Origin: Balanoglossus misakiensis
Lineage: Eukaryota > Animalia > Hemichordata
Direction: 5' to 3'
DNA length: 64,000 bases
Assembly (NCBI GenBank): GCA_040954595.2
Contig: CM082589.2
Span: 11,606,894 to 11,670,893, forward strand
Shown here one piece after another: positions 4,812-39,059 of the stretch. Every line of letters starts with the position of its first letter. The first letter of the stretch is position 1. The notes beneath the pieces are model-generated. The model was not told the origin of the DNA and ran no database searches. It was given only the letters and a program-made list of their open reading frames with translations. The position numbers and the translations under genes are program-made.

Positions 4812-7800
4812 TAGCTCTGCATGGCCTGGTTAATCAATGTTGACGCAAAGGTTGACCCCACCAAACACTCAAAATTAATGGGCACGACACTGGCCACTAG
4901 CTCTGCATGGCCTGGTTAATCAATGTTGACGCAAAGGTTGACCCCACCAAACACTCAAAATTAATGGGCACGACACTGGCCACTAGCTCTGCATGGCCTG
5001 GTTAATCAATGTTGACGCAAAGGTTGACCCCACCAAACACTCAAAATTAATGGGCACGACACTGGCCGCTAGCTCTGCATGGCCTGGTTAATCAATGTTG
5101 ACGCAAAGGTTGACCCCACCAAACACTCAAAATTGATGGGCACGACACTGGCCGCTAGCTCTGCATGGCCTGGTTAATCAATGTTGACGCAAAGGTTGAC
5201 CCCACCAAACACTCAAAATTGATGGGCACGACACTGGCCGCTAGCTCTGCATGGCCTGGTTAATCAATGTTGACGCAAAGGTTGACCCCACCAAACACTC
5301 AAAATTGATGGGCACGACACTGGCCGCTAGCTCTGCATGGCCTGGTTAATCAATGTTGACGCAAAGGTTGACCCCACCAAACACTCAAAATTAATGGGCA
5401 CGACACTGGCCACTAGCTCTGCATGGCCTGGTTAATCAATGTTGACGCAAAGGTTGACCCCACCAAACACTCAAAATTGATGGGCACGACACTGGCCGCT
5501 AGCTCTGCATGGCCTGGAAATCAATGTTGACGCAAAGGTTGACCCCACCAAACACTCAAAATTGATGGGCACGACACTGGCCACTAGCTCTGCATGGCCT
5601 GGAAATCAATGTTGACGCAAAGGTTGACCCCACCAAACACTCAAAATTGATGGGCACGACACTGGCCACTAGCTCTGCATGGCCTGGCTAATCAATGTTG
5701 ACGCAAAGGTTGACCCCACCAAACACTCAAAATTGATGGGCACGACACTGGCCACTAGCTCTGCATGGCCTGGCTAATCAATGTTGACGCAAAGGTTGAC
5801 CCCACCAAACACTCAAAATTGATGGGCACGACACTGGCCACTAGCTCTGCATGGCCTGGTTAATCAATGTTGACGCAAAGGTTGACCCCACCAAACACTA
5901 AAAATTAATGGCCACGACACTGGCCACTAGCTCTGCATGGCCTGGTTAATCAATGTTGACGCAAAGGTTGACCCCACCAAACACTCAAAATTAATGGGCA
6001 CGACACTGGCCACTAGCTCTGCATGGCCTGGTTAATCAATGTTGACGCAAAGGTTGACCCCACCAAACACTCAAAATTAATGGGCACGACACTGGCCGCT
6101 AGCTCTGCATGGCCTGGTTAATCAATGTTGACGCAAAGGTTGACCCCACCAAACACTCAAAATTGATGGGCACGACACTGGCCGCTAGCTCTGCATGGCC
6201 TGGTTAATCAATGTTGACGCAAAGGTTGACCCCACCAAACACTCAAAATTGATGGGCACGACACTGGCCGCTAGCTCTGCATGACCTGGTTAATCAATGT
6301 TGACGCAAAGGTTGACCCCACCAAACACTCAAAATTGATGGGCACGACACTGGCCGCTAGCTCTGCATGGCCTGGTTAATCAATGTTGACGCAAAGGTTG
6401 ACCCCACCAAACACTCAAAATTAATGGGCACGACACTGGCCACTAGCTCTGCATGGCCTGGTTAATCAATGTTGACGCAAAGGTTGACCCCACCAAACAC
6501 TCAAAATTGATGGGCACGACACTGGCCGCTAGCTCTGCATGGCCTGGTTAATCAATGTTGACGCAAAGGTTGACCCCACCAAACACTCAAAATTGATGGG
6601 CACGACACTGGCCGCTAGCTCTGCATGGCCTGGAAATCAATGTTGACGCAAAGGTTGACCCCACCAAACACTCAAAATTGATGGGCACGACACTGGCCAC
6701 TAGCTCTGCATGGCCTGGCTAATCAATGTTGACGCAAAGGTTGACCCCACCAAACACTCAAAATTGATGGGCACGACACTGGCCACTAGCTCTGCATGGC
6801 CTGGCTAATCAATGTTGACGCAAAGGTTGACCCCACCAAACACTCAAAATTGATGGGCACGACACTGGCCACTAGCTCTGCATGGCTTGGCTAATCAATG
6901 TTGACGCAAAGGTTGACCCCACCAAACACTCAAAATTGATGGGCACGACACTGGCCACTAGCTCTGCATGGCCTGGTTAATCAATGTTGACGCAAAGGTT
7001 GACCCCACCAAACACTCAAAATTGATGGGCACGACACTGGCCACTAGCTCTGCATGGCCTGGTTAATCAATGTTGACGCAAAGGTTGACCCCACCAAACA
7101 CTCAAAATTGATGGGCACGACACTGGCCACTACCTCTGCATGGCCTGGTTAATCAATGTTGACGCAAAGGTTGACCCCACCAAACACTCAAAATTGATGG
7201 GCACGACACTGGCCACTAGCTCTGCATGGCCTGGTTAATCAATGTTGACGCAAAGGTTGACCCCACCAAACACTCAAAATTGATGGGCACGACACTGGCC
7301 ACTAGCTCTGCATGGCCTGGTTAATCAATGTTGACGCAAAGGTTGACCCCACCAAACACTCAAAATTGATGGGCACGACACTGGCCACTAGCTCTGCATG
7401 GCCTGGTTAATCAGGGTTGACGCAAAGGTTGACCCCACCAAACACTCAAAATTGATGGGCACGACACTGGCCACTAGCTCTGCATGGCCTGGCTAATCAA
7501 GGTTGACGCAAAGGTTGACCCCACCAAACACTCAAAATTGATGGGCACGACACTGGCCACTAGCTCTGCATGGCCTGGTTAATCAATGTTGACGCAAAGG
7601 TTGACCCCACCAAACACTCAAAATTGATGGGCACGACACTGGCCACTAGCTCTGCATGGCCTGGTTAATCAATGTTGACGCAAAGGTTGACCCCACCAAA
7701 CACTCAAAATTGATGGGCACGACACTGGCCACTAGCTCTGCATGGCCTGGTTAATCAATGTTGACGCAAAGGTTGACCCCACCAAACACTCAAAATTGAT

Positions 7801-10800
7801 GGGCACGACACTGGCCACTAGCTCTGCATGGCCTGGTTAATCAATGTTGACGCAAAGGTTGACCCCACCAAACACTCAAAATTGATGGGCACGACACTGG
7901 CCACTAGCTCTGCATGGCCTGGTTAATCAATGTTGACGCAAAGGTTGACCCCACCAAACACTCAAAATTGATGGGCACGACACTGGCCACTAGCCCTGCA
8001 TGGCCTGGTTAATCAATGTTGACGCAAAGGTTGACCCCACCAAACACTCAAAATTGATGGGCACGACACTGGCCACTAGCTCTGCATGGCCTGGTTAATC
8101 AATGTTGACGCAAAGGTTGACCCCACCAAACACTCAAAATTGATGGGCACGACACTGGCCACTAGCTCTGCATGGCCTGGTTAATCAGGGTTGACGCAAA
8201 GGTTGACCCCACCAAACACTCAAAATTGATGGGCACGACACTGGCCACTAGCTCTGCATGGCCTGGCTAATCAAGGTTGACGCAAAGGTTGACCCCACCA
8301 AACACTCAAAATTGATGGGCACGACACTGGCCACTAGCTCTGCATGGCCTGGCTAATCAATGTTGACGCAAAGGTTGACCCCACCAAACACTCAAAATTG
8401 ATGGGCACGACACTGGCCACTAGCTCTGCATGGCCTGGCTAATCAATGTTGACGCAAAGGTTGACCCCACCAAACACTCAAAATTGATGGGCACGACACT
8501 GGCCACTAGCTCTGCATGGCCTGTTTAATCAATGTTGACGCAAAGGTTGACCCCACCAAACACTCAAAATTGATGGGCACGACACTGGCCACTAGCTCTG
8601 CATGGCCTGGTTAATCAAGGTTGACGCAAAGGTTGACCCCACCAAACACTCAAAATTGATGGGCACGACACTGGCCACTAGCTCTGCATGGCCTGGCTTA
8701 TCAAGGTTGACGCAAAGGTTGACCCCACCAAACACTCAAAATTGATGGGCACGACACTGGCCACTAGCTCTGCATGGCCTGGCTAATCAAGGTTGACGCA
8801 AAGGTTGACCCCACAAAAACACTCAAAATTGATGGGCACGACACTGGCCACTAGCTCTGCATGGCCTGGCTAATCAATGTTGACGCAAAGGTTGACCCCA
8901 CCAAACACTCAAAATTGATGGGCACGACACTGGCCACTAGCTCTGCATGGCCTGGCTAATCAATGTTGACGCAAAGGTTGACCCCACCAAACACTCAAAA
9001 TTGATGGGCACGACACTGGCCACTAGCTCTGCATGGCCTGGCTAATCAAGGTTGACGCAAAGGTTGACCCCACCAAACACTCAAAATTGATGGGCACGAC
9101 ACTGGCCACTAGCTCTGCATGGCCTGGCTAATCAAGGTTGACGCAAAGGTTGACTCCACCAAACACTCAAAATTGATGGGCACGACACTGGCCACTAGCT
9201 CTGCATGGCCTGGCTAATCAAGGTTGACGCAAAGATTGACCCCACCAAACACTCAAAATTGATGGGCACGACACTGGCCACTAGCTCTGCATGGCCTGGC
9301 TAATCAAGGCCTGGCTAATCAAGGTTGACGCAAAGGTTGACCCCACCAAACACTCAAAATTGATGGGCACGACACTGGCCACTAGCTCTGGCCTGGCTAA
9401 TCAAGGTTGACGCAAAGGTTGACCCAACCAAACACTCAAAATTAATGGGCACGACACTGGCCACTAGCTCTGGGCTGGCTAATCAATGTTGACGCAAAGG
9501 TTGACCCCACCAAACACTCAAAATTAATGGGCACGACACTGGCCACTAGCTCTGCCTGGCCTGGCTAATCAATGTTGACGCAAAGGTTGACCCCACCAAA
9601 CACTCAAAATTAATGGGCACGACACTGGCCACTAGCTCTGGGCTGGCTAATCAATGTTGACGCAAAGGTTGACCCCACCAAACACTCAAAATTAATGGGC
9701 ACGACACTGGCCACTAGCTCTGGGCTGGCTAATCAATGTTGACGCAAAGGTTGACCCCACCAAACACTCAAAATTAATGGGCACGACACTGGCCACTAGC
9801 TCTGCATGGCCTGGCTAATCAAGGTTGACGCAAAGGTTGACCCCACCAAACACTCAAAATTGATGGGCACGACACTGGCCACTAGCTCTGCATGGCCTGG
9901 CTAATCAAGGTTGACGCAAAGGTTGACCCCACCAAACACTCAAAATTGATGGGCACGACACTGGCCACTAGCTCTGCATGGCCTGGCTAATCAAGGTTGA
10001 CGCAAAGGTTGACCCAACAAAAACACTCAAAATTGATGGGCACGACACTGGCCACTAGCTCTACATGGCCTGGCTAATCAAGGTTGACGCAAAGGTTGAC
10101 TCCACCAAACACTCAAAATTGATGGGCACGACACTGGCCACTAGCTCTTCATGGCCTGGCTAATCAAGGCCTGGCTAATCAAGGTTGACGCAAAGGTTGA
10201 CCCCACCAAACACTCAAAATTGATGGGCACGACACTGGCCACTAGCTCTGGCCTGGCTAATCAAGGTTGACGCAAAGGTTGACCCCACCAAACACTCAAA
10301 ATTGATGGGCACGACACTGGCCACTAGCTCTGCATGGCCTGGCTAATCAAGGTTGACGCAAAGGTTGACCCCACAAAAACACTCAAAATTGATGGGCACG
10401 ACACTGGCCACTAGCTCTGCATGGCCTGGCTAATCAAGGTTGACGCAAAGATTGACCCCACCAAACACTCAAAATTGATGGGCACGACACTGGCCACTAG
10501 CTCTGCATGGCCTGGCTAATCAAGGCCTGGCTAATCAAGGTTGATGCAAAGGTTGACCCCACCAAACACTCAAAATTGATGGGCACGACACTGGCCACTA
10601 GCTCTGGCCTGGCTAATCAAGGTTGACGCAAAGGTTGACCCCACCAAACACTCAAAATTGATGGGCACGACACTGGCCACTAGCTCTGCATGGCCTGGCT
10701 AATCAAGGTTGACGCAAAGGTTGACTCCACCAAACACTCAAAATTAATGGGCGCGACACTGGCCACTAAGCTCTGGCATGGCTAATCAATGTTGACGCAA

Positions 10801-13022
10801 GGGTTGACCCCACCAAACACTCAAAATTGATGGGCGCGACACTGGCCACTAGCTCTGGCCTGGCTAATCAAGGTTGACGCAAGGGTTGACCCCACCAAAC
10901 ACTCAAAATTAATGGGCGCGACACTGGCCACTAGATCTGGCCTGGCTAATCAAGGTTGACGCAAGGGTTGACCCCACCAAACACTCAAATTTAATGGGCG
11001 CGACACTGGCCACTTGCTCTGGCCTGGCTAATCAATGTTGACGCAAGGGTTGACCCCACCAAACACTCAAAATTGATGGGCACGACACTGGCCACTAGCT
11101 CTGGCCTGGCTAATCAATGTTGACGCAAGGGTTGACCCCAGCAAACACTCAAAATGGATGGGCACGACACTGGCCACTAGCTCTGGCCTGGCTAATCAAG
11201 GTTGACGCAAGGGTTGACCCCAGCAAACACTCAAAATTAATACGCACGACACTGGCCACTAAGCTCTGGCCTGGCTTATCAATGTTGACGCAAGGGTTGA
11301 CACCACCAAACACTCATAATTGATGGGCACGACACTGGCCACTAGCTCTGGCTGGCTAATCAAGGTTGACGCAAGGGTTGACCCCACCAAACACTCAAAA
11401 TTGATGGGAACGACACTGGCCACTAACCTCTGGCCTGGCTAATCAATGTTGACGCAAAGGTTGACCCCACCAAACACTCAAAATTGATGGGCACGACACT
11501 GGCCACTAGCTCTGGCCTGGCTAATCAATGTTGACGCAAGGGTTGACCCCACCAAACAGTCAAAATTGATGGGCATGACACTGGCCACTAGCTCTGGCCT
11601 GGCTAATCAATGTTGACGCAAATGTTGACCCCACCAAACACTCAAAATTGATGGGCACGACACTGGCCACTAGCTCTGGCCTGGCTAATCAATGTTGACG
11701 CAAGGGTTGACCCCACCAAACACTCAAAATTGATGGGCACGACACTGGCCACTAGCTCTGGCCTGGCTAATCAATGTTGACGCAAGGGTTGACCCCACCA
11801 AACACTCAAAATTGATGGGCACGACACTGGCCACTAGCTCTGGGCTGGCTAATCAATGTTGACGCAAAGGTTGACCCCACCAAACACTCAAAATTAATGG
11901 GCACGACACTGGCCACTAGCTCTGCATGGCCTGGCTAATCAATGTTGACGCAAATGTTGACCCCACCAAACACTCAAAATTGATGGGCACGACACTGGCC
12001 ACTAGCTCTGCATGGCCTGGTTAATCAATGTTGACGCAAAGGTCGACGCCACCAAACACTCAAAATTAATAGGCACGACACTGGCCACTAGCTCTGCATG
12101 GCCTGGTTAATCAATGTTGACGCAAAGGTTGACCCCACCAAACACTCAAAATTAATGGGCACGACACTGGCCACTAGCTCTGCATGGCCTGGTTAATCAA
12201 TGTTGACGCAAAGGTTGACCCCACCAAACACTCAAAATTAATGGGCACGACACTGGCCACTAGCTCTGCATGGCCTGGTTAATCAATGTTGACGCAAAGG
12301 TTGACCCCACCAAACACTCAAAATTGATGGGCACGACACTGGCCACTAGCTCTGGCCTGGCTAATCAATGTTGACGCAAGGGTTGACCCCACCAAACACT
12401 CAAAATTGATGGGCACGACACTGGCCACTAGCTCTGGCCTGGCTAATCAATGTTGACGCAAGGGTTGACCCCACCAAACACTCAAAATTGATGGGCACGA
12501 CACTGGCCACTAGCTCTGGCCTGGCTAATCAATGTTGACGCAAGGGTTGACCCCACCAAACACTCAAAATTGATGGGCACGACACTGGCCACTAGCTCTG
12601 GGCTGGCTAATCAATGTTGACGCAAAGGTTGACCCCACCAAACACTCAAAATTAATGGGCACGACACTGGCCACTAGCTCTGGGCTGGCTAATCAATGTT
12701 GACGCAAAGGTTGACCCCACCAAACACTCAAAATTGATGGGCACGACACTGGCCACTAGCTCTGCATGGCCTGGCTAATCAAGGTTGACGCAAAGGTTGA
12801 CCCCACCAAACACTCAAAATTGATGGGCACGACACTGGCCACTAGCTCTGCATGGCCTGGCTAATCAATGTTGACGCAAATGTTGACCCCACCAAACACT
12901 CAAAATTGATGGGCACGACACTGGCCACTAGCTCTGCATGGCCTGACTAATCAATGTTGACGCATATGTTGACCCCACCAAACACTCAAAATTGATTGGC
13001 ACGACACTGACCACTAGCTCTG
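4812..13022. repeat. Satellite DNA, 86-bp unit with an 81-bp variant, roughly 95-100 copies
   Basis: Unit tagctctgcatggcctggttaatcaatgttgacgcaaaggttgaccccaccaaacactcaaaatt(a/g)atgggcacgacactggccac starts at 4812, 4898, 4984...; 5-bp-shorter units (ctctggcctgg) appear from ~9.4 kb; no unique spacers. Confidence 0.98.
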
Positions 13023-14057
13023 CACTACAGCCCAGTGTGCGCCATCTTTGTCCGATATTTCCGTCCCTACTTTCATGGCCTCATGAATAATGTATGAGGC
13101 GATTTGTTACCGGCAATGGAACGTTCGCCAGTTACAACAACATGAAAATGCCGGTAAGTATTACAAGACATTAAACGCATTTATAATGTTTACATCACGT
13201 TATCATATTCTTTAAGGTCTTAAGCTAGTATTGTCATCATTCTCTGATTTCTATTCATTTAATTTCACTGAAAATCTGACCTGGTTTCAAATCGCTATCA
13301 TTGGTAACTATGTAAACAAAGAACATAGCAACCACAACCAAGACAGAAAAACGGCCAAAAAAATCAAATCTTAATGCATTATTCAAAATTTCAAAACCAT
13401 GAGAGTGTTCCTAAGACGTTTGTAACTCAGTGTTTTGATTTTCTATCCCCAAAAAGGTCATATGTAGAAATTGATCCAAGCAGAAATTCATCGAGTTTGG
13501 CGCGTTCTGCCTGCGCGTCGCTCTACCATTGATTACAATGGCACAGCTACGCAAATGTCGACCGTCAGGCAAAACATATCGGCAGATTTCTCGAGTTTGA
13601 AGCGTGAACCTAAAAAAACAAAACGAGCAGATTGTTCCTTGATATCTATATAACATGTTGATATATCATTTTCGTTCTAAAATGTAAGAGTAAATATTTT
13701 GAACGAGAGAGTTCTTGCGACAGCGCTTTGAACGCCGCGCGCGTACAGCGTTTAGGCAAAGCAGACGCACACAGAAGGAACTGCGTCCACGCGCAATATA
13801 CGTAGATTGCAGCTGATTATACTCAATCAATGTTCCGGTACTTGCAACAGTATGCCAGTACTTCGCAAAATACACAGTCTTTTATATCATCAGGTCTTCT
13901 GTAGCGTCATTAAATACTGTCTGTTTGGAACTGTTTGACTGAAACAGCTTTCTAGATGACCTTTTATGTTTTCTACAACTTTTCACATTTATTCACATTT
14001 AGGAAATGCTCTATTGTGTAACTCCATCCCAGCTGTGCTCTGGATATAACTCAAATC

Positions 14058-14408
14058 ATGCCTAACAGGAAAAGGACAAACCATTTTGACATCGGGCAGT
14101 ATGCAGTCCAACAAAAAAAAGCCAGAGAAATAGCTAGAGACATACAACTTCAACAGCTGTTAGATGCTGAGTTAGCTGCAAAGACACTGCCAGAAAAGGT
14201 TAAGAGCAAGTCAGAGAATAGATACAAGCTAGGGGCATGGGCAAGAGAGAGAAAGCGTAGACGTGAGGAAGAGGTAGCTCAGTACAGAGAGAAAATGCAG
14301 AAATTAGATGCAAAGAGGAGACTAGTCGACAGGGCCAGTAAGCAACTAAACAGGCTAGCAAAGAAGCAAAGGAGATTAGCTGGAAATAGGGTTAAGCTTA
14401 ATCAGGAG
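14058..14408 (+). CDS. Coding exon 1 of the transposase (basic, coiled-coil/NLS-rich, 117 aa)
   Basis: ATG 14058; donor GAG|GTAAGG at 14408/14409 is phase 0 and joins in frame to acceptor TAAAG|ATT at 15235/15236 (..NQE|IADLTSPKK..). Confidence 0.65.
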
Positions 14409-14631
14409 GTAAGGTAATTATATAGAAGGAATTTAGCTTCATTTCAGATTTTCACAAGATTTATGATTACAAGCAGAATAGGAAAATATCCACCAAATTA
14501 AAGTTTGTATACTTTAAATTATATTACAACTAAGTGAATCATAAAACATTTTGACCTTGCTTTAATGTATATGATATGATTTTATGTGTGTTTGTTTTCT
14601 AAATTCTGAACTACAGCTTTGAAACACCTCC

Positions 14632-15203
14632 CTGCTTGACCTTGGCATAACACTGGGGTTTCCATTTATGCATATTGCTTGCTCATGTGACATTGCCTCT
14701 CTGTTTGACCTTGGCATGACACTGGGATTTCCATTCATGTGTATTGCTTGATCATGTGATATTCTCTCTCTGTTTGACCTTGGCATGACACTGGGGTTTC
14801 CATTCATGTGTATTGCTTGCTCATGTGACATGGCCTCCATGTTGACCTTGGCATGACACGTGGGTTTCCATTTATGTGTATTGCTTGCTCATGTGACATG
14901 GCCTCCATGTTTGACCTTGGCATGACACTGGGGTTTCCATTTATGTGTATTGCTTGCTCATGTGACATGGCCTCCATGTTTGACCTTGGCATGACACTGG
15001 GATTTCCATTCATGTGTATTGCTTGATCATGTGATATTCTCTCTCTGTTTGACCTTGGCATGACACTGGGGTTTCCATTCATGTGTATTGCTTGCTCATG
15101 TGACATGGCCTCCATGTTTGACCTTGGCATGACACTGGGGTTTCCATTCATGTGTATTGCTTGCTCATGTGACATTGCCTACCTGTTTGACCTTGGCATG
15201 ACA
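14632..15203. repeat. 69-bp minisatellite (~8 copies) in the predicted transposase intron
   Basis: ttgaccttggcatgacactggg recurs at 14705, 14774...; produces the repetitive 23-aa-period ORFs 14562-15175 on the minus strand. Confidence 0.92.
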
Positions 15204-15235
15204 ATGAAAATCTGTTTTGTATTCATTTATTAAAG

Positions 15236-17442
15236 ATTGCAGATTTGACATCCCCAAAGAAACAGAAGTGGGTTCATAAAAGCAGCCAGGTTTGTGCTAA
15301 TAACAGTGAATGCCTCACACTGTCCAGAAGTCAGCAACATGAACGCAGAAGTCAGACTCTTCATGCAGCTACAGTCATACACCAGTCATCATCAGGAACA
15401 GATATATCTGCAGGGAGACATGTCAGTGCAAATCCACCAAAATCAGCTCTTGATGGGCTATGGTATACTTTGATCAACAGTGCCACTCCACGTCAAATGG
15501 AAAAGTACCTTCAATCATCAATGAAAATAAATGAATTGGTCATACCAACTTTGATAAAGAAATCAATATCTGAATTTGAGAAAAGTGAAGGTAATTTGAC
15601 TAGGAGTGTGCAAGTGTTGTATCAGAATGGGGTTTTGTCAAAACGCAAATACAATGCCTTACGTAATAGTGAGTTGAATCTGTCTAAATTAAAACAACCT
15701 AGAAAAGTGTTGCAATTTCACTTTAGGTGTAACATACCAAGGTTACTTTCCTACAACAAGGTCACTGAATATACACGTGGTTTAGATATAGGAAGTCTTG
15801 AACCAATTGTAACAGATGCAAACAAAGTAGTGGGTATGAAGCGAAATACAGAGCAGATGCTCTTTAAAGTTGCTGACATGTATCTTTGCTTGAGTGAGCA
15901 CCACCCTAACATCCTAAATTGGTTTGGCAAACCGAAGGGCACTTTCCAACTTGCTGTTGGTGCTGATGGGGCTCCTTTTGGAAAATATGGTCAGGCAACT
16001 TCCTGGCTTGTCAGTTTCATCAATGTGGGCCACAGATTAGCAAGCCCTGATGATAATTTCTTGTTGCTAGGGGCTAATCTGAAGGAAGATGACCCAGTCC
16101 TGATAGATTATGCTAAAAACCTAGCCAAAGAGTTTGAGATCATAGAGGCCAAACAATACACTTTACATGGCCTGAGTGTAAAGTTTAATGTATCTTTGCT
16201 GCCATTTGATCAAAAGGGATTAGCCTCAGTTTCTGGTGAGTTATCTAATGCTGCTGAGTATTTCAGTTCCTTTGCTAATGTAACAAAAGGTAGCATAGAT
16301 GAAATAGGGGCAGATATAGGGCCAGGGAAATTTTGGTCAGAGTGGAGCTATAAGCAGTGGCAAAATTCAAAGCAAATTTGACAAAGAAAACAGGTAAGCC
16401 TGAAACATCGACAGATCGCTCTAAGGTCACACGTTTCATTGCCTCCAGAAAATCCCGACAGGAATATATTCCACCCCTGGGTAAGTATATACAGTGTGCC
16501 AAGATAGAACCCCTACATCTAAAAAACAATGCCTGGCAGTATTTCTTTCAAAGGCTTCTTACTGATGCTGTGGCTAAGACTGACCAAAAAGTCATTGACC
16601 ATGGTGTGAAATTAGAAAAGCTACCACCAAATTCATGCCTGTACAAATTCCTGCATACACTAAAATATACAGTGAGAGCAGGGAAACTATACAATCAAAT
16701 TGTCAAATATTTTGCTGAGAATAAGGTTAGTACCCATGCCCAATCAGTGAGAGTTCACCGCTTTACAGGGGAAGAATCAAGGAAGTTGGCATGGTCTTTT
16801 ATGTCACTGATAGAGTGTTTTAGGGAACCCGGTATCAGTGCACAGGTGAGAGCGAAATTGTCCCTGTATGGTTACATTGGTGTCCTACTCAGAGATATAA
16901 CATCTCTCTGTTCCAGGTTTACCCTACATGAGAGAGATATTGTAGTACTAAGGCAGAAGTGCAAATGGTACTTCAATTTGCATGCGTTATTTCTGACCGT
17001 AAACAATACTATTTGGCATATAGGATATGTTGTTCCGTGTCATGCATCTCAAATCCACCAGCAGTTCCAAATGGGGCTTGGGCTTAATACAATGGAGGGC
17101 AGGGAGGCAAAACATCAGCGCCTTCTGGAATACAGCAATAATTCCACCCCTCAAAATAGATGGCCACTAATTTTCAGACATGAGAATGTATTGTTGTACT
17201 GGTTACGCATGCGAGACCCCGCTTCAGATAACTACAGGGGGGATGGGAGGTCAAATGCCTCCAAAGTAATAAAGTACATCCCAGACAAATGCTTTGATGA
17301 CCCATCATACTGTTATTGTGGGAATGTAAAGGAAGAGTTGTCAAATTCCTGTGAAATATGCAGCAGTGAATTTATGTCAGAAATAAAACAGTCTGCAATT
17401 AGTGGTAAGATCTCAAAAAAACTAAAAAAAATAATGAAATAA
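15236..17442 (+). pseudogene. RAG1/Transib-like DDE transposase core, one frameshift near 16357 (~850 aa if spliced and repaired)
   Basis: Motifs collinear with the RAG1 core: GADGAPFG (cf. SCDGMG, D600), PFDQKGLASVSGELSNAAEYF (cf. [21 protein letters not shown], D708), IEPLHLKNN (cf. IDALHCDIG), FTGEESRKL (cf. MNGNFARKL), GLGLNTMEGREAKH (cf. SIGAWASEGNESGN, E962); C-terminal CxC..CxxC; ORFs 15245-16381 and 16357-17442 overlap in different frames. Confidence 0.75.
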
Positions 17443-17862
17443 AATGTGAAAGTTTGAATTTCATGATTCAAAACAATTATTACTGTACATGAAATGTACC
17501 AGATAGTTTTAGATTTGTATATAACTGTAAGAGAGTTTGTTGTAAATAATCTTTCATTATGAATGTCACAGATTTTGTGCTGCTTGTATTGTATTGTTCA
17601 AAATATGTATATAGCTTTTTAATCATCCTTTGAAACTAGCTGCTTATATCAGCTCTGTAGATAACCATGTTTCAAAATAAGTGAATAAAAACTGAATGAT
17701 AAATGATTCACCCACAGCTATTCAGTTCCTATAAAACATGTTTTTCTTTTTTAATTTTGCTTGGACATGCAACGATGCATGAATTCAAATGGACTGACAA
17801 AAAGTAATATAGTCAGTTCCAAGAACATGAAAAAAAATTTCAACAACAGTCTAAATATGATT

Positions 17863-18483
17863 TCACAAATGCTGAGCAACACCATGTTTGTTCCAGCATC
17901 CAAAATGGAAATGTATTGTCACTGTCTCGGCTGATTTCCTGTATCTGACAATCATAGGTTTATCTTCGGTGCAGATAACTTCCACCCGCTTACCCTTTAC
18001 TGTCTTCACCAGAAGTTGTTGGTTTTCATAGTTGACACCTCTACCCAGCACGTAATTCACTTTGTTGATCCAGGTAAATCGAAAGGTAGCAATACATGGA
18101 GTTTCCCGATCATAAATTCCCATTGAATTACGGGTAGCGCACTTTCGAAATACATCGAAAACTTCCATAGGAACATTCCTACCAAAACTGCACTTCCATG
18201 GGTTGCGCACTGAGGGTGATGGCTTCATTCTCTGCATAATTGTTGAGCGCCAGTGACACATCTCCCGTTCGAATACAGGATACACCGGAATCTGCTGCAT
18301 CTTCGCAAGCTCCACCATCGTTGCACTACGTTTGCGAACTGTTACATCAACAGCAGCATCGAGATCATCAAAACAATCATGTAGGTTGATGGAACGGTCG
18401 ATATTTGTCCTCAATAACTGAAATTTGGCCTCACGCAGCTTACGTTTCACTGTTTTAGAAACATCGATCATGGACGCCGCCAT
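17863..18483 (-). CDS. Intact 206-aa protein of unknown function, convergent with the transposase inside the TIRs
   Basis: Uninterrupted 621-nt ORF with strong start context AAAATGGCGGCG, ~105 bp inside the right TIR; no kelch or PHD motifs recognised. Confidence 0.7.
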   Translation of the reverse strand: MAASMIDVSKTVKRKLREAKFQLLRTNIDRSINLHDCFDDLDAAVDVTVRKRSATMVELAKMQQIPVYPVFEREMCHWRSTIMQRMKPSPSVRNPWKCSFGRNVPMEVFDVFRKCATRNSMGIYDRETPCIATFRFTWINKVNYVLGRGVNYENQQLLVKTVKGKRVEVICTEDKPMIVRYRKSAETVTIHFHFGCWNKHGVAQHL

Positions 18484-21400
18484 TTTGTATATACGATGCT
18501 AGGAACGTGACCCCAGCATATGACCTCAATTAACATATTTCCGCTTCGCGGAATAGCGGACAAATGAACACACTTCTGGGCCGCAGTGCTGCATTTTTGG
18601 AGTGGTCGAAAGTTTTAACATACAATCAACATGTCATATATGATCAGGGCACCAAATTCGAAGAACAAAGGTTTTTTTATTTTTTTCTAAAAATGACATT
18701 TTCAAGGAAAATTTGGTAAAACGCAATTTCGTCTGCAGTGAGCCAAATTAGACTGTATTTTGTGGAATTTGTATCGATATATACATACGAAGAGCATTCT
18801 ATACTCCATCAGATTTCCGAAAATGTAGAAAACAGGTATTTTTTGTAATTTTCAAAAATTTACCATTTTGACCAAATTGTGGCTAAAATTGTTATTTTCG
18901 TGTTGAATGCCGCCAGTGTCACTGCTTTTAAAAGTCATCAAAACTTTTAACATACAAGCAATTGTTTATATATGATCAGGTCACCGAATTAAAAAAATAA
19001 AGAATGTTTTCCCTAAAAATGACCTTTTTGGTGCAAAAACGAATAAAACGCAATTTTGTATTAAATCAGCTCATTCAGAGTGCATTTTTTATAATCAGCA
19101 CCATTTTTTACATATAATGGAAATTTCATACATCATCAGATATCCAAATATGAAAAAATGATTTAGATTTTAGATGATTGTCCAAAATTAGCTGATATCT
19201 AATAAATGTAGTATTGAACCGTTCCGTCCCCCCCCCTACATTATATGCGGTACGCCGATGTCAGCTTACCCGGCAGTACTGCAGGCCGTGCCCCCAACTA
19301 ACGTCGGTGTTTGAAACGCCCTGTTAAATTCGGGCTCTCTCTATAAATTGACAGGCAATAATGCAGTCCTACCCGAACAAATGTCGAGTGTTGACCCGCT
19401 GTGACTTTCCCTCTTCGGTTTGCCCGACTTAGCCAACGTCTTTGTACTAGAGTGTCGGGTCTTTTGCAGAGCCAGGCCGAAGGAAATCCGAGTAGATCAA
19501 CGTGGTCTCTGTACGCGTGTTTCTGCTCTAGAGTGTCGGGTCTTTTGCAGAGCCAGGCCTAAGGAATTCCGACTTGATCAACGTTGCTAACGAACGCTAG
19601 TGTCTGTCATGGTGTGCCGGGGTTTTAGTCGAGCCAGGCCGTAGGAGATCTGACTTGATCATCGTGGTCAATGTACGCGTGTTTCCGCTCTAAAGTGCCG
19701 GGGCTTCAGCTAAACCAGGCCGTAGGAAATCCGACGTAATCACCTTTGATAACTTCCGCCAGTCTGTGTCATATAGAGCCGGTGCACCAGCCGAGTCACG
19801 CCGTAGGAAATCTGACTTGATCAACGTGGTCAATGTACGCCTGTTTCTGCTCTAGAGTGCAGGGGCTTCAGCTAAACCAGGCCGTAGGAAATCCGACGTA
19901 ATCACCGTTGATAACTTCCGCCAGTCTGTGTCATATAGAGCCGGTGCACCAGCCGAGTCACGCCGTAGGAAATCTGACTTGATCAACGTGGTCAATGTAC
20001 GCCTGTTTCTGCTCTAGAGTGCCGGGGCTTCAGCTGAGCCAGGCCGTAGGAAACCCGACGTGATTACCGTTGTTAACTTACGCCAGTCTGTGTCCTATAT
20101 GTAGTGCCGGGGCATCAGCCGTGCCAGGCCGAAGGAAATGTGAGTAGATCATCGTGGTCTCTGTACGCGTGTTTCTGGTCTATAGTGCCAGGGCTTTAGC
20201 CAAGCCATGCCGTAGGAAATATGACTTGATCAACGTTGCTTACTAACGCTAGTGTCTGTCATAGTGTGCCGGGGTTTTAGTCGAGCCAAGCCGTAGGAGA
20301 TCAGACTTGATCAACGTGCTCTCTGTACGCGTGTTTCTGCTCTAGAGTGCCGGGGCTTTATCCAAGCCATGCCGTAGAAAATCTGACTTGATCACCGTTG
20401 CTAACGTACGCTAGTGTCTGTCATATTGTGACGGAGATTTAGCCGAGCCAGGCAGTAGAAAAATCGACTTGTTCAACGTTAACAGTGTGCAACTGTTTCT
20501 GCTCTAGAGTGTCAGGGTTTTAGCCGACTTATGCTGTAGGAAATCTTAGTTGATGAACGGGAATTCAATGTTAGAAAACCCGTGTGGAAAGTATCTCTAC
20601 CCGTTTGAAACTAAGAAAAGAATTTATTCTTATTTATTTTGTAAAAAAGACAATTTTTCGAGAGAAAAAAAGTCGAAAATGGTAATTTTTTCTTGGGTGA
20701 TTCAAATTATACCGCCTTTTCTGGAATTTGCAGCACTTTTTACAAGAGAACGACACTTCATGCTCCATAACATTTCCGAAAATGAAGAAAAGAGTTAATT
20801 TTTTAGGATTTTTCAAAAATTTACCATTTTTGTCAAAATATGGCCAAAATGGCTATTTTTACTTGAATTCCGTCAATATCTTTGCATTTTTGGAGTGGTC
20901 GAAAGTTTTAACATACAATCAACATGTCATATATGATCAGGGCACCAAATTCGAAGAACAAAGGTTTTTTTTATTTTTTTTTCTAAAAATGACATTTTCA
21001 AGGAAAATTTGGTAAAACGCAATTTTGTCTGCAGTGAGCCAAATTAGACGGTCTTTTGTGGAATTTGTATCGATATATACATACGAAGAGCATTCTATAC
21101 TCCATCAGATTTCCGAGAATGTAGAAAACAGGTATTTTTGTAATTTTCAAAAATTTACCATTTTGTCCAAATTGTGGCTAAAATTGTTATTTTCGTGTTG
21201 AATGCCGCCAGTGTCACTGCTTTTAAAAGTCATAAAAACTTTTAACATACAAGCAATTGTTTATATATGATCAGGTCACCGAATTAATAAAATAAAGAAT
21301 GTTTTGCCTAAAAATGACCTTTTTGGTGCAAAAACGAATAAAACGCAATTTTGTATTAAATCAGCTCATTCAGAGTGCATTTTTTATAATCAGCACCATG

Positions 21401-23061
21401 TTTACATATAATGGAAATTTCATACATCATTAGATATCCAAATATGAAAAAATGATTTAGATTTTAGATGATTGTCCAAAATTAGCTGATATCTAATAAA
21501 TGTAGTATTGAACCGTTCTGTTCCCCCCCCCCCCTACATTATATGCGGTACGCCGATGTGAGCTTACCCGGCAGTACTGCAGGCCGTGCCCCCAACTAAC
21601 GTCGGTGTTTGAAGCGCCCTGGTTAAATTCGGGCTTTCTCTATAAATTGACAGGCAATAATGCAGTCCTACCCGAACAAATGTCGAGTGTTGACCCGCTG
21701 TGACTTTCCCTCTTCGGTTTGCCCGACTTAGCCAACGTCTTTGTACTAGAGTGTCGGGTCTTTTGCAGAGCCAGGCCTAAGGAATTCCGACTTGATCAAC
21801 GTTGCTAACAAACGCTAGTGTCTGTCATGGTGTGCCGGGGTTTTAGTCGAGCCAGGCCGTAGGAGATCTGACTTGATCATCGTGGTCAATGTACGCGTGT
21901 TTCCGCTCTAAAGTGCCGGGGCTTCAGCTGAGCCAGGCCGTAGGAAATCCGACGTGATTACCGTTGTTAACTTACGCCAGTCTGTGTCCTATATATAGTG
22001 CCGGGGCATCAGCCGTGCCTGGCCGAAGGAAATGTGAGTAGATCAACGTGGTCTCTGTACGCGTGTTTCTGCTCTAGAGTGCCAGGGCTTTAGCCAAGCC
22101 ATGCCGTAGGAAATCTGACTTGATCAACGTTGCTAATGAACGCTAGTGTCTGTCATAGTGTGCCTGGGTTTTAGTCGAGCCAAGCCGTAGGAGATCAGAC
22201 TTGATCAACGTGGTCTCTGTACGCGTGTTTCTGCTCTAGAGTGCCTGGGCTTTATCCAAGCCATGCCGTAGAAAATCTGACTTGATCACCATTCCTAACG
22301 TACGCTAGTGTCTGTCATGTTGTGACGGAGATTTAGCCGAGCCAGGCCGTATAAAAATCGACTTGTTCAAAGTTACCAGTGTGCAACTGTTTCTGCTCTA
22401 GAGTGTCAGGGTTTTAGCCGACTTATGCTGTAGGAAATCTGAGTTGATGAACGGGAATTCAATGTTAGAAAACCCGAGTGGAAAGTATCTCTACCCGTTT
22501 GAAACTAAGAAAAGAATTTATTCTTATTTATTTTGTAAAAAAGACAATTTTCCGAAAAAAAGTCGAAAATGGTAATTTTGTCTTGGGTGATTCAAATTAT
22601 ACCGCCTTTTCTGGAATTTGCAGCACTTTTTACAGAGAACGACACTTCATGCTCCGTAATATTTCCGAAAATGAAGAAAACAGTTAATGTTTTATGATTT
22701 TTTAAAAATTTACCATTTTTGTCAAAATTTGGCCAAAATGGCTATTTTTTCTTGAATTCCGTCAATATCTCTGCATTTTTGGAGTGGTCGAAAGTTTTAA
22801 CATACAATCAACATGTCATATATGATCAGGGCACCAAATTTGAAGAACAAAGGTTTTTTTATTTTTATTTCTAAAAATGACATTTTCAAGGAAAATTTGG
22901 TAAAACGCAATTTTGTCTGCAGTGAGCCATATTAGACTGTCTTTTTTGGAATTTGTATCGATATATACATACGATAAGCATTTTATACTCCATCAGATTT
23001 TCGAAAATGTAGAAAACGGGTATTTTTTGTAATTTTCAAAAATTTACCATTTTGACCAAAT

Positions 23062-23562: not shown

Positions 23563-26366
23563 TCAAATAGAGAGATCCGCTATTCGTACTCGAGCGGCAA
23601 CTGCAGAGTCTCTGACAGGTCGTCTCGGGGGTACAACATCCGCCTTCACCGAGGAATCTTCAGAGGCTCCAGCTGTGTCGACTGTTTCAGTATTCGTGTT
23701 GGAATCTGCTCCAATACCTGTATTATCTCCAGACACAGTTGACAGCTCCTTGGAGACAACTTCCAATGGGTACAATTTATGGATAGGTCGGTTTGTAGGA
23801 CCACCTGCGGTGTTCAACTCCGCAGATCGTACCAGTTTATTATTACCGAAGATCAACCTTGTTACAGTTCCTAAATGCCATTTCGGACGTTTGTCAGTGT
23901 CACTGTGTATTATCACGACATCTCCGACCTTGATGACATTATCACGAGTTCCTTTGGTGGGATGTCGTTCACGTAGGGCAGTCAGATACTCGGACGACCA
24001 TCTTCGCCAAAATTGATCGTGTAATCTTGATAGATGTTCATATCTTTTGTTGATTTCACGATTATCACAGTAAGATGGGTCAATCACCTCCTCGTCGGTG
24101 ATCTCGATGTACGGCAATGAGGTCAGTGTCCTGCCATGTAGCAAGTGATTTGGGGTCAATCCAATGTTGTCGTTTATACTAAATGACACGTACGTTAACG
24201 GCCTGTCGTTTAAAACGGCTTCAATTTCAGTCACAACTGTTGCGAGTTCATCAAAGGTTAGGTAAGCTCGACCGAGAGTTTTCCTAATAGCGTTCTTTGT
24301 CAAAGCAATCAGCCTCTCCCAGAAGCCACCAAACCAGGGCGCGCGCTTCGGTATAAACGTCCATTGTACACGGTGTGCGGCGAGAAAGTCATTTACTTCT
24401 GGCGTATCAAACAGTGTTTTGATTTCATTGGCAGCCGATAAATAAGTCGATGCGTTGTCTGACAGCATCCTACTCGGCAAAGAACGTCTCGCGGCGAATC
24501 TTCTGAACGCGTGCATGAACGTCTGGGTTGACATATCAGGAACCAGTTCTAGGTGAATGGCACGCGTCACCGCACAGGTGAATAAACAGATATAGGCTTT
24601 GGCACGTGTCCCATCTTTGGCCTTGGTATAAAGATGACCCGTGAAATCCACGCCTGTTACAGTAAATGCTGGGACAATGTTCACTCGATAACTTGGTAGC
24701 GGCGCTTGCACTGGATTCGCGTAAGGTTTCCCGGTAACTTTGTTGCAAATGACACAACCACGTAAGACACCGCGTACAATAATCTGAATTTTGGGGATCC
24801 AATATCTTTGCCTTATCTGTGTCACTGTAGATTGGACTCCCTGGTGAAGCGTCAGTTCGTGTGATTTCCGTATTATCAAATTTGTCAATTTATGATGCGA
24901 GGGTATCAAGGCGGGAAATCTTGTGACGAAATCGATCGGCGCGTTATGGATTCTACTCCCACAGCGAAGTACGTCTTCTTCGTCAACAAATAAGTTCAGT
25001 TGTCGAACAATGGGCGCACATTTACTCAAGTTCAATTTCACAGACTGGATTTCGGCGTCATAGAACTGCCGTTGAATATGTTTAACCCACATATTTTCCG
25101 CTCGGTGCAGCTCATCAGGGGTAATTCTCCCGTGTTTCACCTCGGTAGATTTTTTCATCCGTGCGATGAATCTGAGGACATAACTTGTCACTCGTAATAG
25201 CCTATCCAAGTTGTTGAATCTGGAAATGTCAACAACGTGTTGAATTCCGTAGTCATTGGGACTGGTAATTTCCAGATTTTCGCGATCTGTACATCGTCTG
25301 GCTTTGGGGGGAGCGAGTATTTCTGCCTTCTCGGTAGACTGATCGTTGATTCCGTTGCCGAAACGCGGCGGCAATCTGTCCGTCTCATCTGGTTCGATTG
25401 CGGTATGCATCACATTAACATCAAACGCTGGGCAACTAGGCCAATCGCTTGTCTTTAGCCATGTTGGTCCATTACGCCATAGTTCAGAGCGTTCCATCAT
25501 TTCGTAGGTTACCCCTCTGGTTAAAAGATCAGCTGGGTTGTGTTCTGATGGGCAGTATTTCTTTGTGGACTGAAATTCGCGAATTTCATCTACTCGATTC
25601 TTCACAAACACCGGAAGTCTCTTCTCACTGTTCAGCCAGTGAAGGACAATTTGGCTGTCACTCCATAAATAACAACGAACTATGTCATATTTGGAGGACA
25701 GGGCTTCTTTAGCGTACTTGCTGAGACGTGTGGCTATTAACGCAGCCATCAATTCCAGTCGCGGGAGTGTAGTTTCAGCCACTGGTGCGGTTCTAGTCTT
25801 CGCCATCACAAACGACGTTTGCTGTCCTCTTTTCAAATACACTACTGCCCCATACGCTCTCTGGCTTGCGTCTGCAAAGGCGTGTAGCTCGCATTCATTG
25901 TCGCCTTCAAGTTCATCAAAATATTGTCGTTCGATCTTCGTGTTTCGCGAGTCTTTGAGATCTTCTGCGATGTGCATCCATTGAGTGTAGAGATCTGCGT
26001 TGATAGGTTCATCCCAGTCTAATTCCAGTTTCCATAGTAACTGAATGAACAATTTGGCTTTGATCATTACAGGGGCGAGAAATCCAAACGGAACAAATAG
26101 CATCGCCACATAGCTGACAATGTCACGTTTGGTCACGAGTTCGGCACGCGACGACATATTAACCACTTTGGAGTAAGTCAATTCGTCAGATTTTGTTGAC
26201 CACTGCATTCCCAAAACGGATACATCTTCGGTGGGTTCGTTCAGATTGTCACATGTAGCGAGTTCGTTTATTTGTTGACAGTTGGAAGACCATGCTCTGA
26301 GTTTGAATCCGCCTGATGTCATCAACTCATTGGCTTCATGGTAGTATTTCATGGAGTTTTCTGCAG
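23563..26366 (-). CDS. BEL/Pao pol, C-terminal part (RT end, RNase H, integrase, DUF5641-type tail)
   Basis: LHAFADASQRAYGAVVY (RNase H), NPADLLTRG, H..H..CxxC zinc finger, GVDFTG / SDNAS / GGFWERL integrase DDE, FWRRWSSEYL. Confidence 0.95.
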
Positions 26367-26369
26367 TAT

Positions 26370-27806
26370 TTTTTTATTTTATTTATTTATTACACAGATC
26401 AACGGGCAAACCCACTTACAGATCTGGGAAACAATAAAAACAATTAAGTCACAAAACAAAAATTAACTGAAAAACAAGACACCAAAAAAGTAACACATGT
26501 CACGTAAAATATAAATACAAATCAAGGAACAGTACTATTAAAATGACTGGATAAAATAGATTTAAAACTGTGGAGCGTAGAAAAAATATCAATATTACAT
26601 TTAGAAGAAATCTCATTAAAAGCAGACATGCATCTGAGCATTGTCGAGAATTTTCTACAATTAACGGAGCGCAAGTCGGGTTTAAAAAGGGGTTTCTTGC
26701 GTAAATTTCTACTAGGGGCGTAAAACATATTTGATTTAAAATACCAGGTGAATCATACTGTGAGTGGATAATTTTGTATAAAAAAAAACATGTCAAGGGT
26801 GAGTCTTCTGTTATATAACATTGGGATATTCAGTAATCTACAATAAATAGGGTAGCTGGACCTGCTGCAGTGAATATTGAGTTTGCAACAAATGTACTTC
26901 ACAAACTTAATTTGTACCCGCTCAATCTTGTCTGACAGGCCCTTTTGGTGGGGTGACCACACAACAGAGCCATACTCTAGAATAGATCTTACATAAACAA
27001 AATATAGAGAAATAATAGCGGATATGTCATTAAAAGGCTGGCAGAGGCGCTTAATAAAACCCAGAGATTTGAAGGCTCTGGAAACTGTGTTATTTATGTG
27101 GAAAGAATAATTGAGATTAGAAGTAAGGTATATGCCCAAGTCCTTGATTACAGAAACACGTTGAAGGGGAGTGCCATTGATAGAGTAGTCAGTAGATGAA
27201 ATAACCCTTTTCTTTAGGGTGAAACTGATGAATTTGCATTTATTGATATTAGGTGACAACTTCCAGTTGTCACACCAGAGAGCAAATTTATCAAGGTCTT
27301 TCTGTAACAAGTCACAATCAGCGGAGGAGGTGATGGTACGGTAAATCTTAGCATCGTCGGCATACATGCTGAGCTTTGCAGAAATATCTAACAGTGATAT
27401 ATCATTTATATACATTACAAAAAGTAGTGGCCCCAAGAGTGAACCTTGTGGGACCCCCGATGTAGCAGTGAAGCTGTTTGACGAGTGACTGCCAAACACC
27501 ACCGTCTGTTGTCTGAGATGGAGATACGACGCCAGCCAGCTGTGCAAATTGCCACATATACCAAATTTGGCGGCTTTGTACAGCAGTAGTGTGTGACAGA
27601 CACTGTCAAACGCCTTGCTAAAATCAGTGTAGATTGAATCTACCTGTTCTTTGTTGTTCAATGAAGCTGAAATGAAATCAGTGTAAGCCACTAAGTTGGT
27701 TGTGGTAGATCTATTTTTAACAAATCCATGCTGATCAATGGATATATTTGGTTGAACATGCTGGTAGATATGAGGGACAATGACAGCTTCGAAAATCTTA
27801 GCAAAA
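26370..27806 (-). mobile_element. 5'-truncated CR1/Jockey-group LINE inserted in the BEL RT
   Basis: RT motifs QHGF..RST, YTDFSKAFDSV, GVPQGSLLGPLLF, YADD, KDLG, WSPH..IERVQ; A/AAAT-rich tail at 26370-26390; TAT on both sides (26367-69, 27807-09). Confidence 0.92.
26753..27806 (-). pseudogene. LINE reverse transcriptase fragment
   Basis: ORF 26753-27691 extends upstream in frame as FAKIFEAVIVPHIYQHVQPNISIDQHGFVKNRSTTTNL; frameshifted toward the C-terminus. Confidence 0.9.
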
Positions 27807-30612
27807 TATCAACTCCATCGATCACATTATCCACACAGATATTATTTCCCAATCTGTCAGCGGTGGGAAGTTGACTATTGTTCTCTAAATGCGTCTTGAT
27901 AACCGCATTGAGGATGAATGGGGAACAGACTGCTCCAAACAAGACAGACTTAAACTGCAAAGTTATGAAGTCACTTTCTGGGTCGTTAATGTCCGACAGC
28001 CACAGAAATTTCGTGAATTTCCTCTCATCTTCTTCCAACCGAATGTTCAGGAATGCTTTCTCAATGTCAGCTGTGAAAGCAATGTTATTGGCGCGGAATC
28101 TCAGCAGAATCGCTGGCAGGTCATTTATTAATGACGGTCCAGTTTGCAAGCAATCATTCAAACTTGGATAATTAGAATCCTTCTTACAAGAGCAATCATA
28201 AACGATGCGAATGGGTGTTGTGGTCGAATTCTTAACCACCGGACGATGTGGCAAATAGTGTCCGATATTCACGTCATCTTCGTCAACCTCTCCGATGAAG
28301 TCGCGACGTCTCTGTTCATTGATTATGTCGTCATATTTCTTGATGAGTTCAGAGGGTAACCTGCGTATCATATTACGCGTGCGTTTCATGGCGACATCGT
28401 AGTTGGTGGGTAGTGGAGGGTGATCTTCCTTCCACAGTAGTTTAGCTACGTATTTTCCTCGGTCAACTCTCAAGTGCGTGTCTCTGTAAGACTCGTACGT
28501 CAACTGTTCATCAACTGTTGGATTGTCCTGAATACCGATCAATTCAAGGTCCCACATATTTTGGACCTGTGGTTCTCGGCCGATCGCAGTACTATCCATC
28601 GGTGTATACATGTCCGTTGCGCGATCTCCATGCAGTCCGTTGATAGAGTTCTCTGAAACTACGTTACTGGTATCAGCAGTAGAAATCACATGTAAGATAT
28701 GCGCATTAGAATCCACTTTGGGAGTTCCGAGGGGTCCGGAGAGTAAGTATCCAAATTTGGATGACACAGCAGTGGGGCCGGACGCGCCAGAAATAACGTG
28801 TGAGCCCATGAAATTCCAATATTGGTCGGCTCCGATTAGAACATCTATTGGCCACGACTGATCACTCGAAACTGGATGTGCGAATGGTAGCCCTTTCAGG
28901 TGGCTCATATTGTGGACTTCCTGAGAAATGTGATTTGTTAAGTCCGACGATATCTCTGGAATTATCATCGCGTGAATAGTTGAAGTATTCCCGTTCAGTT
29001 CATGAGCAGTTAGTTCGGTGAATCCCATGGTGCGTACTTTGGAATCCTTGCCACGGAAGGTCGATAACTTTATGTGTTCGTGCCGCGTAGCTTTCGCGGA
29101 CAGCTGACGGGCGAATCTCTCAGTGACGAATGTCTTATTTGCTCCTTCATCAAACAGGATGATGGCATGTATGGGGGTTCCCCGTCCGACAGACAGTGGT
29201 ACAAACGCAGTTTTCAGCAGCACTGGCCCAGTGTTTATCTTCTTATCCGTAAATGTATCGGTATTAGTCAATGTTACTTTGACATCAGAAGTACTTGATG
29301 ATGGCGATGGCGAGGACGACGCTCCGGTTGGCGTAGTTGTAGCGGTGGGAACGTCGTAGTGTAGCGCAGAGTGATGACGTTTCCTACACTTTCTGCAGGA
29401 GTATTTTGATTTACACTCCGCAACTCTATGTTTTCCAAAGCAATTAAAACATAGTCTGTCCTTCTTCACAATGTCCAGTCTCTCGCGCGTATCAGTTACC
29501 ACAGTGCAATTTGACGCGAAGTGTGACCCTTTGCAGAACGGGCACGTTTTGACAGGGGCGCGAAAATTCTGTTTACCTGTCATCTGCGTTTTCGTGTGAA
29601 ACGCGGTTATTACCGGTTCTCTGGTAGTGGCCATTGTTATCTCGTCGACCCGGTTGCCGGCTTGAAGGGCGTTTATCTCGTGTTGAATGGCTTTTCGTAG
29701 ATCTGGTAATGTCCACGCAGCATTACCATGTTTTCTTGCTATCTGCTCTCGAATGTTAGGAGGTAATTTCTCCCGTATTATTGGAACCAAAAGTTCGCCG
29801 TATGTGGTTTCCTCCTTACCCAGCGACTGAAGACCTCGAACGTGATTTTCAATCGAGTCGTAGAAATGCCTTAAACTTTGTACGTCGGCGGTTGGGCTTT
29901 GTAGATTCCACAACGCGGTCATATGAGCATCTACTATGAGATGGGTTTGTCCGTATCTTTCGGTCAATAAGTCAATCGCGTGCGTGAGTGGCAATCCGTT
30001 GATTGTTCTCGCTGCTTCATCTTTGAGTACACTCCGCAAATACGTAAACTTCTGAATGTTGTCCAAATTAGTGTCCGAAGGTATCGAAGACTTGAATACA
30101 TCGAAGAAACTCGACCATTCTATTACATTGCCTGAGAAAGTTTGCAGCTGGAGTTTCGGTAGAGTTACTGTTTTACGAGGCGTCGCGTTGCCGAGGCTGC
30201 TTCCCGTTACATTACCAGTACTAGTAGTAGTTGTCCGCATCTCCGATTTGTTTTTCTTGATGAAAGATGCGATGCGATGATTGTGTTCGAAGATTTCGGC
30301 GTGGTAGTCGCCTGAAGTTTCATTTTCTTCGTCAAAGTGTTCATCGTCAATTAGATCGAGGATTCTCACCTCGAGGTCGGCGAGTAGACGGATCTTGTTC
30401 GAAAGTTGTTCGTTTAGCCCTTCCAGCGTGTCGAGTGTAGTCGGCTTGTCTGTACCGACGTCTACGAAATTGTTCATGATGGTGTCGGCCCGGTTGAACA
30501 GTCGGGTCACTTGTGCGCGTTGACCACGACGCGATCTCTTCAGTTTTGTCAACGCTGTTGGCTGATCCTCTTGTTGTCCATCTTGTGGCGCGATGTGTTC
30601 TTGTTCCGACAT
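27807..30612 (-). CDS. BEL/Pao gag-protease-RT N-terminal part
   Basis: LPKLQLQTFSG..W (DUF1759-type), three Cys-His knuckles (CPFC..H..C, CFNC..H..C, CRKC..HH), ILFDEGA protease, YLPHRPV, ADIEKAFL, FGAVCSPF, CVDN in place of YVDN. Confidence 0.95.
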
Positions 30613-38948: not shown

Positions 38949-39059
38949 TAAATGTCATTACATAGCTAATGCTAGTGTTCCATGTGCACATAACGTGCTT
39001 GGACTACAATGATTAGAACATTTGTCTAATACTAGAGTCCGCCATAACGGCCAGCCAGC

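Follow-up and report, generated by a model that had tools for sequence, protein, structure and literature searches.

A conserved second gene, likely encoding a small DNA-binding accessory protein, in a Transib/Chapaev-like transposon of Balanoglossus misakiensis

Does a 206-aa open reading frame (ORF) lying beside a broken transposase, at the right end of a DNA transposon in the hemichordate Balanoglossus misakiensis, encode a protein that serves the transposon, and what might such a protein do? The question comes from a stretch of 64,000 nucleotides, referred to here as the window, which is rich in satellites and retroelement-like ORFs. The original prediction described an intact and intronless orphan ORF in a position equivalent to that of RAG2, and proposed that it encodes an accessory factor of the element. 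The ORF list confirms the intact, intronless reading frame, located on the minus strand, and the start context is the one predicted, AAAATGGCGGCG. The gene is convergent (tail-to-tail) with the plus-strand transposase, and the features around it are as follows:

17863 to 18483, minus strand: conserved second gene, 206 aa (ORF scan, homology, linkage, model, dN/dS)
18484 to 18588, minus strand: leader of 105 bp, from the element end to the ATG, with a putative promoter, a probably very short 5'UTR and a TISU/YY1-like start context; conserved in relatives
17443 to 17862, no strand: 420-bp spacer separating the two convergent genes; a motif scan marks candidate poly(A) signals at 17684 (plus strand) and at 17618 and 17750 (minus strand)

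The element that carries this gene occupies positions 13023 to 18588 (5,566 bp) and is bounded by imperfect terminal inverted repeats (TIRs) of about 40 bp that start with CACT, while its relatives start with CACGCYGGGC at both ends. The ORF had been placed about 105 bp inside the right TIR; its ATG does lie 105 nt from the last base of the element, 18588, but the TIR itself is only about 40 bp long and imperfect. The ends are:

13020 to 13022, no strand: CTG left of the element, matching the right CTG; possible 3-bp target duplication
13023 to 13062, plus strand: left TIR, imperfect, starting CACTACAGCCC, aligned to the reverse-complemented right end
18549 to 18588, minus strand: right TIR, starting CACTGCGGCCC on the minus strand, aligned to the left end
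18589 to 18591, no strand: CTG right of the element, to be read with the same caution as the left copy

Since the flanks in the window, an 86-bp satellite on the left and a different repeat on the right, both contain CTCTGCAT, the CTG copy alone is no proof of a duplication. A 3-bp duplication was found in 4 of the 11 two-ended elements with flanks, namely the window copy (CTG), L005 (GAT), L074 (TAG) and L081 (ATA); one of the others has a 2-bp duplication and six have none, and duplications of 4-7 bp occur in none of the 10 elements scanned. L044, whose left flank is a single base, was kept out of this count. In several elements without a duplication, and also in L074, one of the flanks recurs in a sister contig, a pattern expected when multi-copy sequences are collapsed in assembly. 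The 3-bp target duplication is proven by the empty site of L081: this element interrupts a 294-bp satellite, whose repeat unit is restored when a duplication of 3 bp is assumed (19 matches) and at none of the lengths 0-2 and 4-6 (no match). The complete element in L081 spans 4415-12956 in an animal-like satellite, and the bin of its contig is labelled Anaerolineae bacterium, so that the contig is probably host DNA inside a bacterial bin.

Both the window copy and L081 are located inside tandem repeats. In the window, a large array of the 86-bp satellite (4660-13020) consists of copies about 98% alike, and a tandem repeat of about 2 kb with internal sub-repeats, always starting at TGCATTTTTGGAGTGG and present at very high depth in the sample, occupies 18589-23060 and recurs at 42344 and 59418-63515. 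The element stands between two different high-copy repeats, both reading CTCTGCAT where they meet it (13016-13022 and 18589-18596). In one contig of run X2 the satellite is connected to the right repeat with no element in between, the short side of this join being only 27 letters. Positions 13386-14623 are matched by a second, diverged copy of the left part of the element, at about half depth in run X1. In L074 (806-903) and L026 (2985-3091), which belong to different families, about 100 bp around the 3' end of the second gene are copied in inverted orientation near the left end, with 96% and 92% identity, respectively; in L026, a right-end-like TIR follows at 3097. Such copies could be a source of hairpin RNA or a mark of composite origin. 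Farther away, the minus-strand ORFs at 23563-30612 and 38055-41975 presumably represent, judging by eye, a BEL/Pao retrotransposon and a DIRS-like element with a tyrosine recombinase.

The description of the ORF as an orphan did not hold. An unindexed phmmer search of 1.84 billion representative sequences returned 118 matches to the 206-aa protein at E≤0.001, 24 of them at E≤1e-10; most are 190-260 aa long or fragments, and P0124, P0177 and P0214 were dropped as false matches, being repeats that fail the family profile. A profile search with the second-gene family retrieved 16 proteins, all 16 with the precomputed Pfam accession PF26709.1, and two of these (P0201 and P0217) are also direct matches of the window protein. 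A word-index homology search with the ORF gave no match, the ESM Atlas held no usable match for the window protein or P0217, and no relative of either the transposase or the second gene was found among viral contigs. When 62 family members were compared with a local copy of Pfam, no significant match was obtained, none being better than E 0.003, and no kelch family appeared.

The link between the two genes was assessed in the best 80 of 206 metagenome stretches, which had been fetched with the transposase alignment alone. A minus-strand homologue of the second gene lies downstream of the transposase in 37 of these 80 loci. Its frequency rises to 35 of the 38 loci with at least 1.4 kb of downstream sequence and to 23 of the 24 with at least 2 kb; most loci without the gene are contigs that end too soon. 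Three loci (L009, L040 and L056) have at least 1.4 kb downstream without a match, and L056 has as much as 5,976 bp. In a search with just the window protein, 36 of the 37 linked homologues are found at E<0.05. L081 is one further linked locus and the sole one from GTDB.

Many of the 80 loci are near-identical copies, and the 38 loci with a second gene were reduced to 23, window included, for tree building. The transposase and second-gene trees have 14 of 20 splits in common (Mantel rho 0.59, p=0.0002); linked genes give congruent trees through common ancestry alone, so this agreement speaks of long co-inheritance and not of interaction. The protein is also under purifying selection: the Nei-Gojobori dN/dS of the second gene is far below 1 (0.16-0.32, with p from 7e-3 to 2e-13) in six of seven pairs, and these six share no locus. 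The seventh pair, L055-L076, gives 0.98, and L055 is a broken copy. Two readings, a chance ORF and a fragment of a separate element, were rejected, and the proposal of an accessory factor is well supported, as the homologues are linked to the transposase family, dN/dS is low and the ORF is not a piece of a host gene.

The start of the second gene is also conserved. The distance from the element end to the ATG is 70-124 bp in 15 of 17 loci (the other two were not parsed), and all 17 have AA at positions -3/-2 before the ATG. In 15 of them the second codon is GCG, a triplet used for 18 of 176 Ala codons in the gene bodies. Conservation at a silent position suggests an element acting at the DNA or RNA level, such as TISU/YY1. 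In mammalian work, this start element is a conserved ATG context located 5-30 nt from the transcription start (PMC2518114). The earlier idea of a promoter inside the element end, itself deduced from position, gains support from this conserved context.

The structure prediction for the protein is confident. An AlphaFold2 model reached a pLDDT of 94.6 and a pTM of 0.83 with an alignment of 140 sequences (the window protein, 109 of the 118 matches, 12 of the 16 profile-search proteins and 18 loci), and a pLDDT of 29.8 without the alignment. The model consists of helices at residues 2-26, 28-53, 56-62 and 67-85, followed by a domain of seven strands and two helices; in other words, a helical hairpin (2-53), a basic helix (67-85) and an alpha/beta domain (97-197). 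The helical N-terminal half, the beta-rich C-terminal half and the basic character (pI 9.8) are as had been foreseen, as is the lack of kelch repeats or a PHD finger. Residues 2-85 are helical and the seven short strands belong to a mixed alpha/beta domain, which is no kelch beta-propeller; a PHD-like pattern occurs in none of 72 full-length members, and there is no conserved Cys column. With neither propeller nor PHD, homology of the second gene to RAG2 was rejected. Fold searches with the model gave no clear match, from which neither novelty nor function follows. The 72 full-length members have a median pI of 9.3, and the net charge over residues 76-96 is +5. Conserved positions of the family include R/K84, R/K85, P95, P105, F109, K/R160 and Y181, with K or R at 84, 85 and 160 in about 90% of rows; at position 84, R is found in 84% of the family but Q in the window copy.

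The transposase of the window copy is composed of the following parts:

14058 to 14408, plus strand: predicted first exon, charged and coiled-coil-like (ORF)
14627 to 15206, no strand: 69-bp tandem repeat inside the predicted intron (self-BLAST offsets)
15236 to 17442, plus strand: DDE transposase core, with one frameshift near 16342-16357 and a C-terminal CxC…CxxC tail (homologues)

An in-frame splice would join 14408 to 15236. In relatives, the first exon finds weak matches on the plus strand ahead of the transposase core, the best at E 0.004 in a search of 10,451 segments. The transposase has 45 homologues, the named ones from the corals Dendronephthya, Pocillopora and Porites. Residues D257 (34 of 34), D342 (47 of 47) and E642 (49 of 49) are invariant in the rows of alignment A4 that cover them, and as a second invariant Glu, E297, exists, the catalytic D-D-E assignment is drawn from motif context. 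The family also has an invariant PLH and a C-terminal cysteine cluster. None of 47 rows contains CxxC within 45 residues after the second D, and of the two His of an H(3-4)H motif before the final E, the second (late) one is present in 48 of 50 rows and the first in only 27. HMM searches of Pfam and PDB sequences with the transposase matched no DDE family and, specifically, not RAG1.

With intact homologues as queries, tblastn switches frame near 16342-16357, where about seven codons appear by eye to be missing. An assembly error was rejected as the cause, as contigs of the sample, which may be the window's own source and are then not independent, cross the site without gaps. Judging from short matches, the sample also contains diverged paralogues of both genes. 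It had been remarked that the ORF is still open while the transposase is frameshifted. The observation is correct, but it carries no weight as evidence: the transposase is about four times longer than the ORF, so that one lesion more likely lands in it, and the reverse decay, an intact transposase core with a damaged second gene, occurs in L004, L006, L033 and L057. With both patterns among relatives, the state of the window copy is uninformative, and selective retention of its ORF was rejected.

How does this gene pair relate to known systems? The comparison with RAG2 stands only for position and orientation; the transposase, in turn, falls outside RAG1/Transib by its target duplication and zinc motif. 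Like the RAG1L and RAG2L genes of RAGL/ProtoRAG elements, the two genes form a convergent pair inside TIRs starting with CAC, and the transposase motifs DG, D-x-K, LH, late His and E come in the same order as in RAG1. The element differs in its partner protein, which has 205-255 aa and neither kelch nor PHD, in the lack of C(2)C in its transposase and in a 3-bp duplication, versus the 5 bp given for RAGL/ProtoRAG and Transib (PMC7204232, PMC4411706, PMC9435367). CMCT elements are described by 5'-CA..TG-3' ends, 2-5-bp duplications and the C(2)C and H(3-4)H motifs (PMC12730594). The present element has such ends, a duplication in that range and the D-D-E triad, and it works like a CMCT transposon, but as it lacks the C(2)C motif carried by RAG1, Transib, Chapaev and EnSpm, we do not file it as a member.

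EnSpm/CACTA elements encode a second protein, TnpA, in addition to the transposase. They resemble the element in CAC…GTG ends and a 3-bp duplication (PMC12730594), and differ in that the second gene here is convergent and intronless with its own start at the right end, and that C(2)C is missing. CACTA families of Pfam were matched by none of 6 full-length homologues and were absent from the 25 of 32 weak families listed (52 sequences, E≤10). Chapaev and Chapaev3 likewise have CAC…GTG ends, a 3-4-bp duplication and marine invertebrate hosts, and the duplication of Chapaev3 is given as TWA (PMC4079192). None of the four duplications found here (ATA, GAT, TAG, CTG) is TWA. There is no conserved Cys/His column before the first D, in a region where first exons are poorly covered, and hence no sign of a Chapa finger. 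Unlike this element, Chapaev is not known to have a conserved second gene. Kolobok Kol0, with its transposase and KolX, shares a small second gene restricted to one lineage; it belongs to a different superfamily, and KolX has a 7-cysteine ballast fold, while the second-gene family has no conserved Cys. A DDE survey counts 19 superfamilies (bioRxiv 2021.09.26.461848).

Taken together, the second gene very probably serves the element, and we lean, with some reserve, towards a small basic accessory protein that acts as a DNA-binding helper of transposition. This reading is based on the linkage, the convergent layout, the fixed position at the right end, the congruent trees, the purifying selection, the CAC…GTG ends and the 3-bp duplication. 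Transcription of the gene would start at a promoter within the outermost ~100 bp of the right end, run into the element and give a very short leader. The basic helix, with the family's R/K at 84 and 85, may contact the element ends or target DNA, and the helical hairpin may mediate self-association or contact with the transposase. CACTA TnpA, the Harbinger Myb protein and RAG2, none of them homologous to this protein, would have a comparable job. The window copy, although non-autonomous, could still be a source of the protein in trans. A precedent is given by the named accessory genes of other DDE superfamilies (PMC9587614, PMC12730594). Points against the helper reading are Q84 in the window copy, the pair L055-L076 with its dN/dS of 0.98 and the three loci with enough downstream sequence but no match.

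The basic surface of the protein would fit RNA or chromatin binding equally well, and an unlikely alternative is that the protein acts as an anti-silencing or chromatin factor outside the cutting complex, shielding the element against silencing by the host or maintaining its promoters in an open state. A parallel exists in the VANC proteins of plant VANDAL elements. The second gene has diverged at roughly twice the rate of the transposase (median identity across the 23 loci of 23% and 40%, respectively), several members of this basic family carry acidic N-terminal extensions, and the gene's own conserved TISU/YY1-like start context suggests independent expression, all of which would suit such a factor; against it, the conserved residues are under purifying selection, and nothing is specific to chromatin.

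The most conserved stretch of the family, the C-terminal G-x-W-N-x-x-G-x-x-x-H (N 95%, G 88%, H 83%), ends in a His and could be an active site. A nuclease or another nucleic-acid-processing enzyme that trims transposition intermediates or element RNA is nevertheless decidedly unlikely. It would account for the near-invariant N and H at the extreme C-terminus and for the conserved E74, W78, R84/R85 and E107, and accessory nucleases are described in the Kolobok and ISL2EU lineages (PMC9587614). However, no column is invariant across the 140 sequences, His205 is replaced in 17% of rows, and no acidic metal-binding set exceeds 70% identity.

It is improbable that the gene is a negative regulator limiting the activity or expression of the transposase, either through its protein or through convergent transcription, for although the tail-to-tail layout with little DNA between the genes (420 bp in the window) and the persistence of copies with an open ORF and a broken transposase would fit, the four loci named above show the reverse pattern, and nothing else favours repression. 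A captured host gene or passenger without a role for the element is largely refuted and highly improbable: in the nemertean Tubulanus polymorphus, a MAP2/Tau-like gene model does finish with the C-terminal domain of the family (profile E 1.7e-24), but the gene has kept its place in elements whose transposases share only ~40% identity, with congruent trees and purifying selection, and the one fusion to a host gene is explained more simply by the host having taken up the domain from the element, or by the joining of two gene models.

That nemertean model, NCBI LOC141906646 (P0184, P0288 and P0289), combines three Tau/MAP tubulin-binding repeats with the C-terminal ~146 aa of the family in three annotated isoforms, and it possibly represents either a host-gene capture or a joined model. 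KolX was captured by the host gene P2X7, and a similar capture of the second gene may have happened in the nemertean.

On our best reading, the second gene encodes an accessory protein that likely binds DNA, in a Transib/Chapaev-like lineage for which we found no printed description. A literature search retrieved no account of the lineage or of the gene pair within its scope, while Repbase, subscription journals and bioRxiv supplements lie outside it and may hold the family. The term PF26709 occurs in none of the papers searched, and the family motifs are absent from the listed rows of one paper's supplement (DNA and trees), a weak indication. What is already known comprises the Pfam accession PF26709 for the domain and accessory genes in other superfamilies (PMC9587614).

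A bolder version of the helper reading, which we hold tentatively and consider rather doubtful, is that the element represents an unnamed superfamily-level lineage related to Transib/Chapaev that lost the zinc-binding C(2)C motif and independently reached the RAG1-RAG2 layout, its small, new-fold partner being an obligate subunit of the cutting complex. If true, this would be a second natural experiment in which a Transib-like enzyme gained a partner, and the domain of that partner would later have been captured by a ribbon-worm host gene.

Two unannotated protein families with coral relatives are thereby brought together in one mobile element with defined ends, a target duplication and a conserved helper gene. 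What RAG2 does and where it came from has long been asked; in this element, a similar-looking transposase has a tail-to-tail partner that is not related to RAG2. With the intact copies L074 and L081, the benefit of such a partner to the transposase is directly testable.
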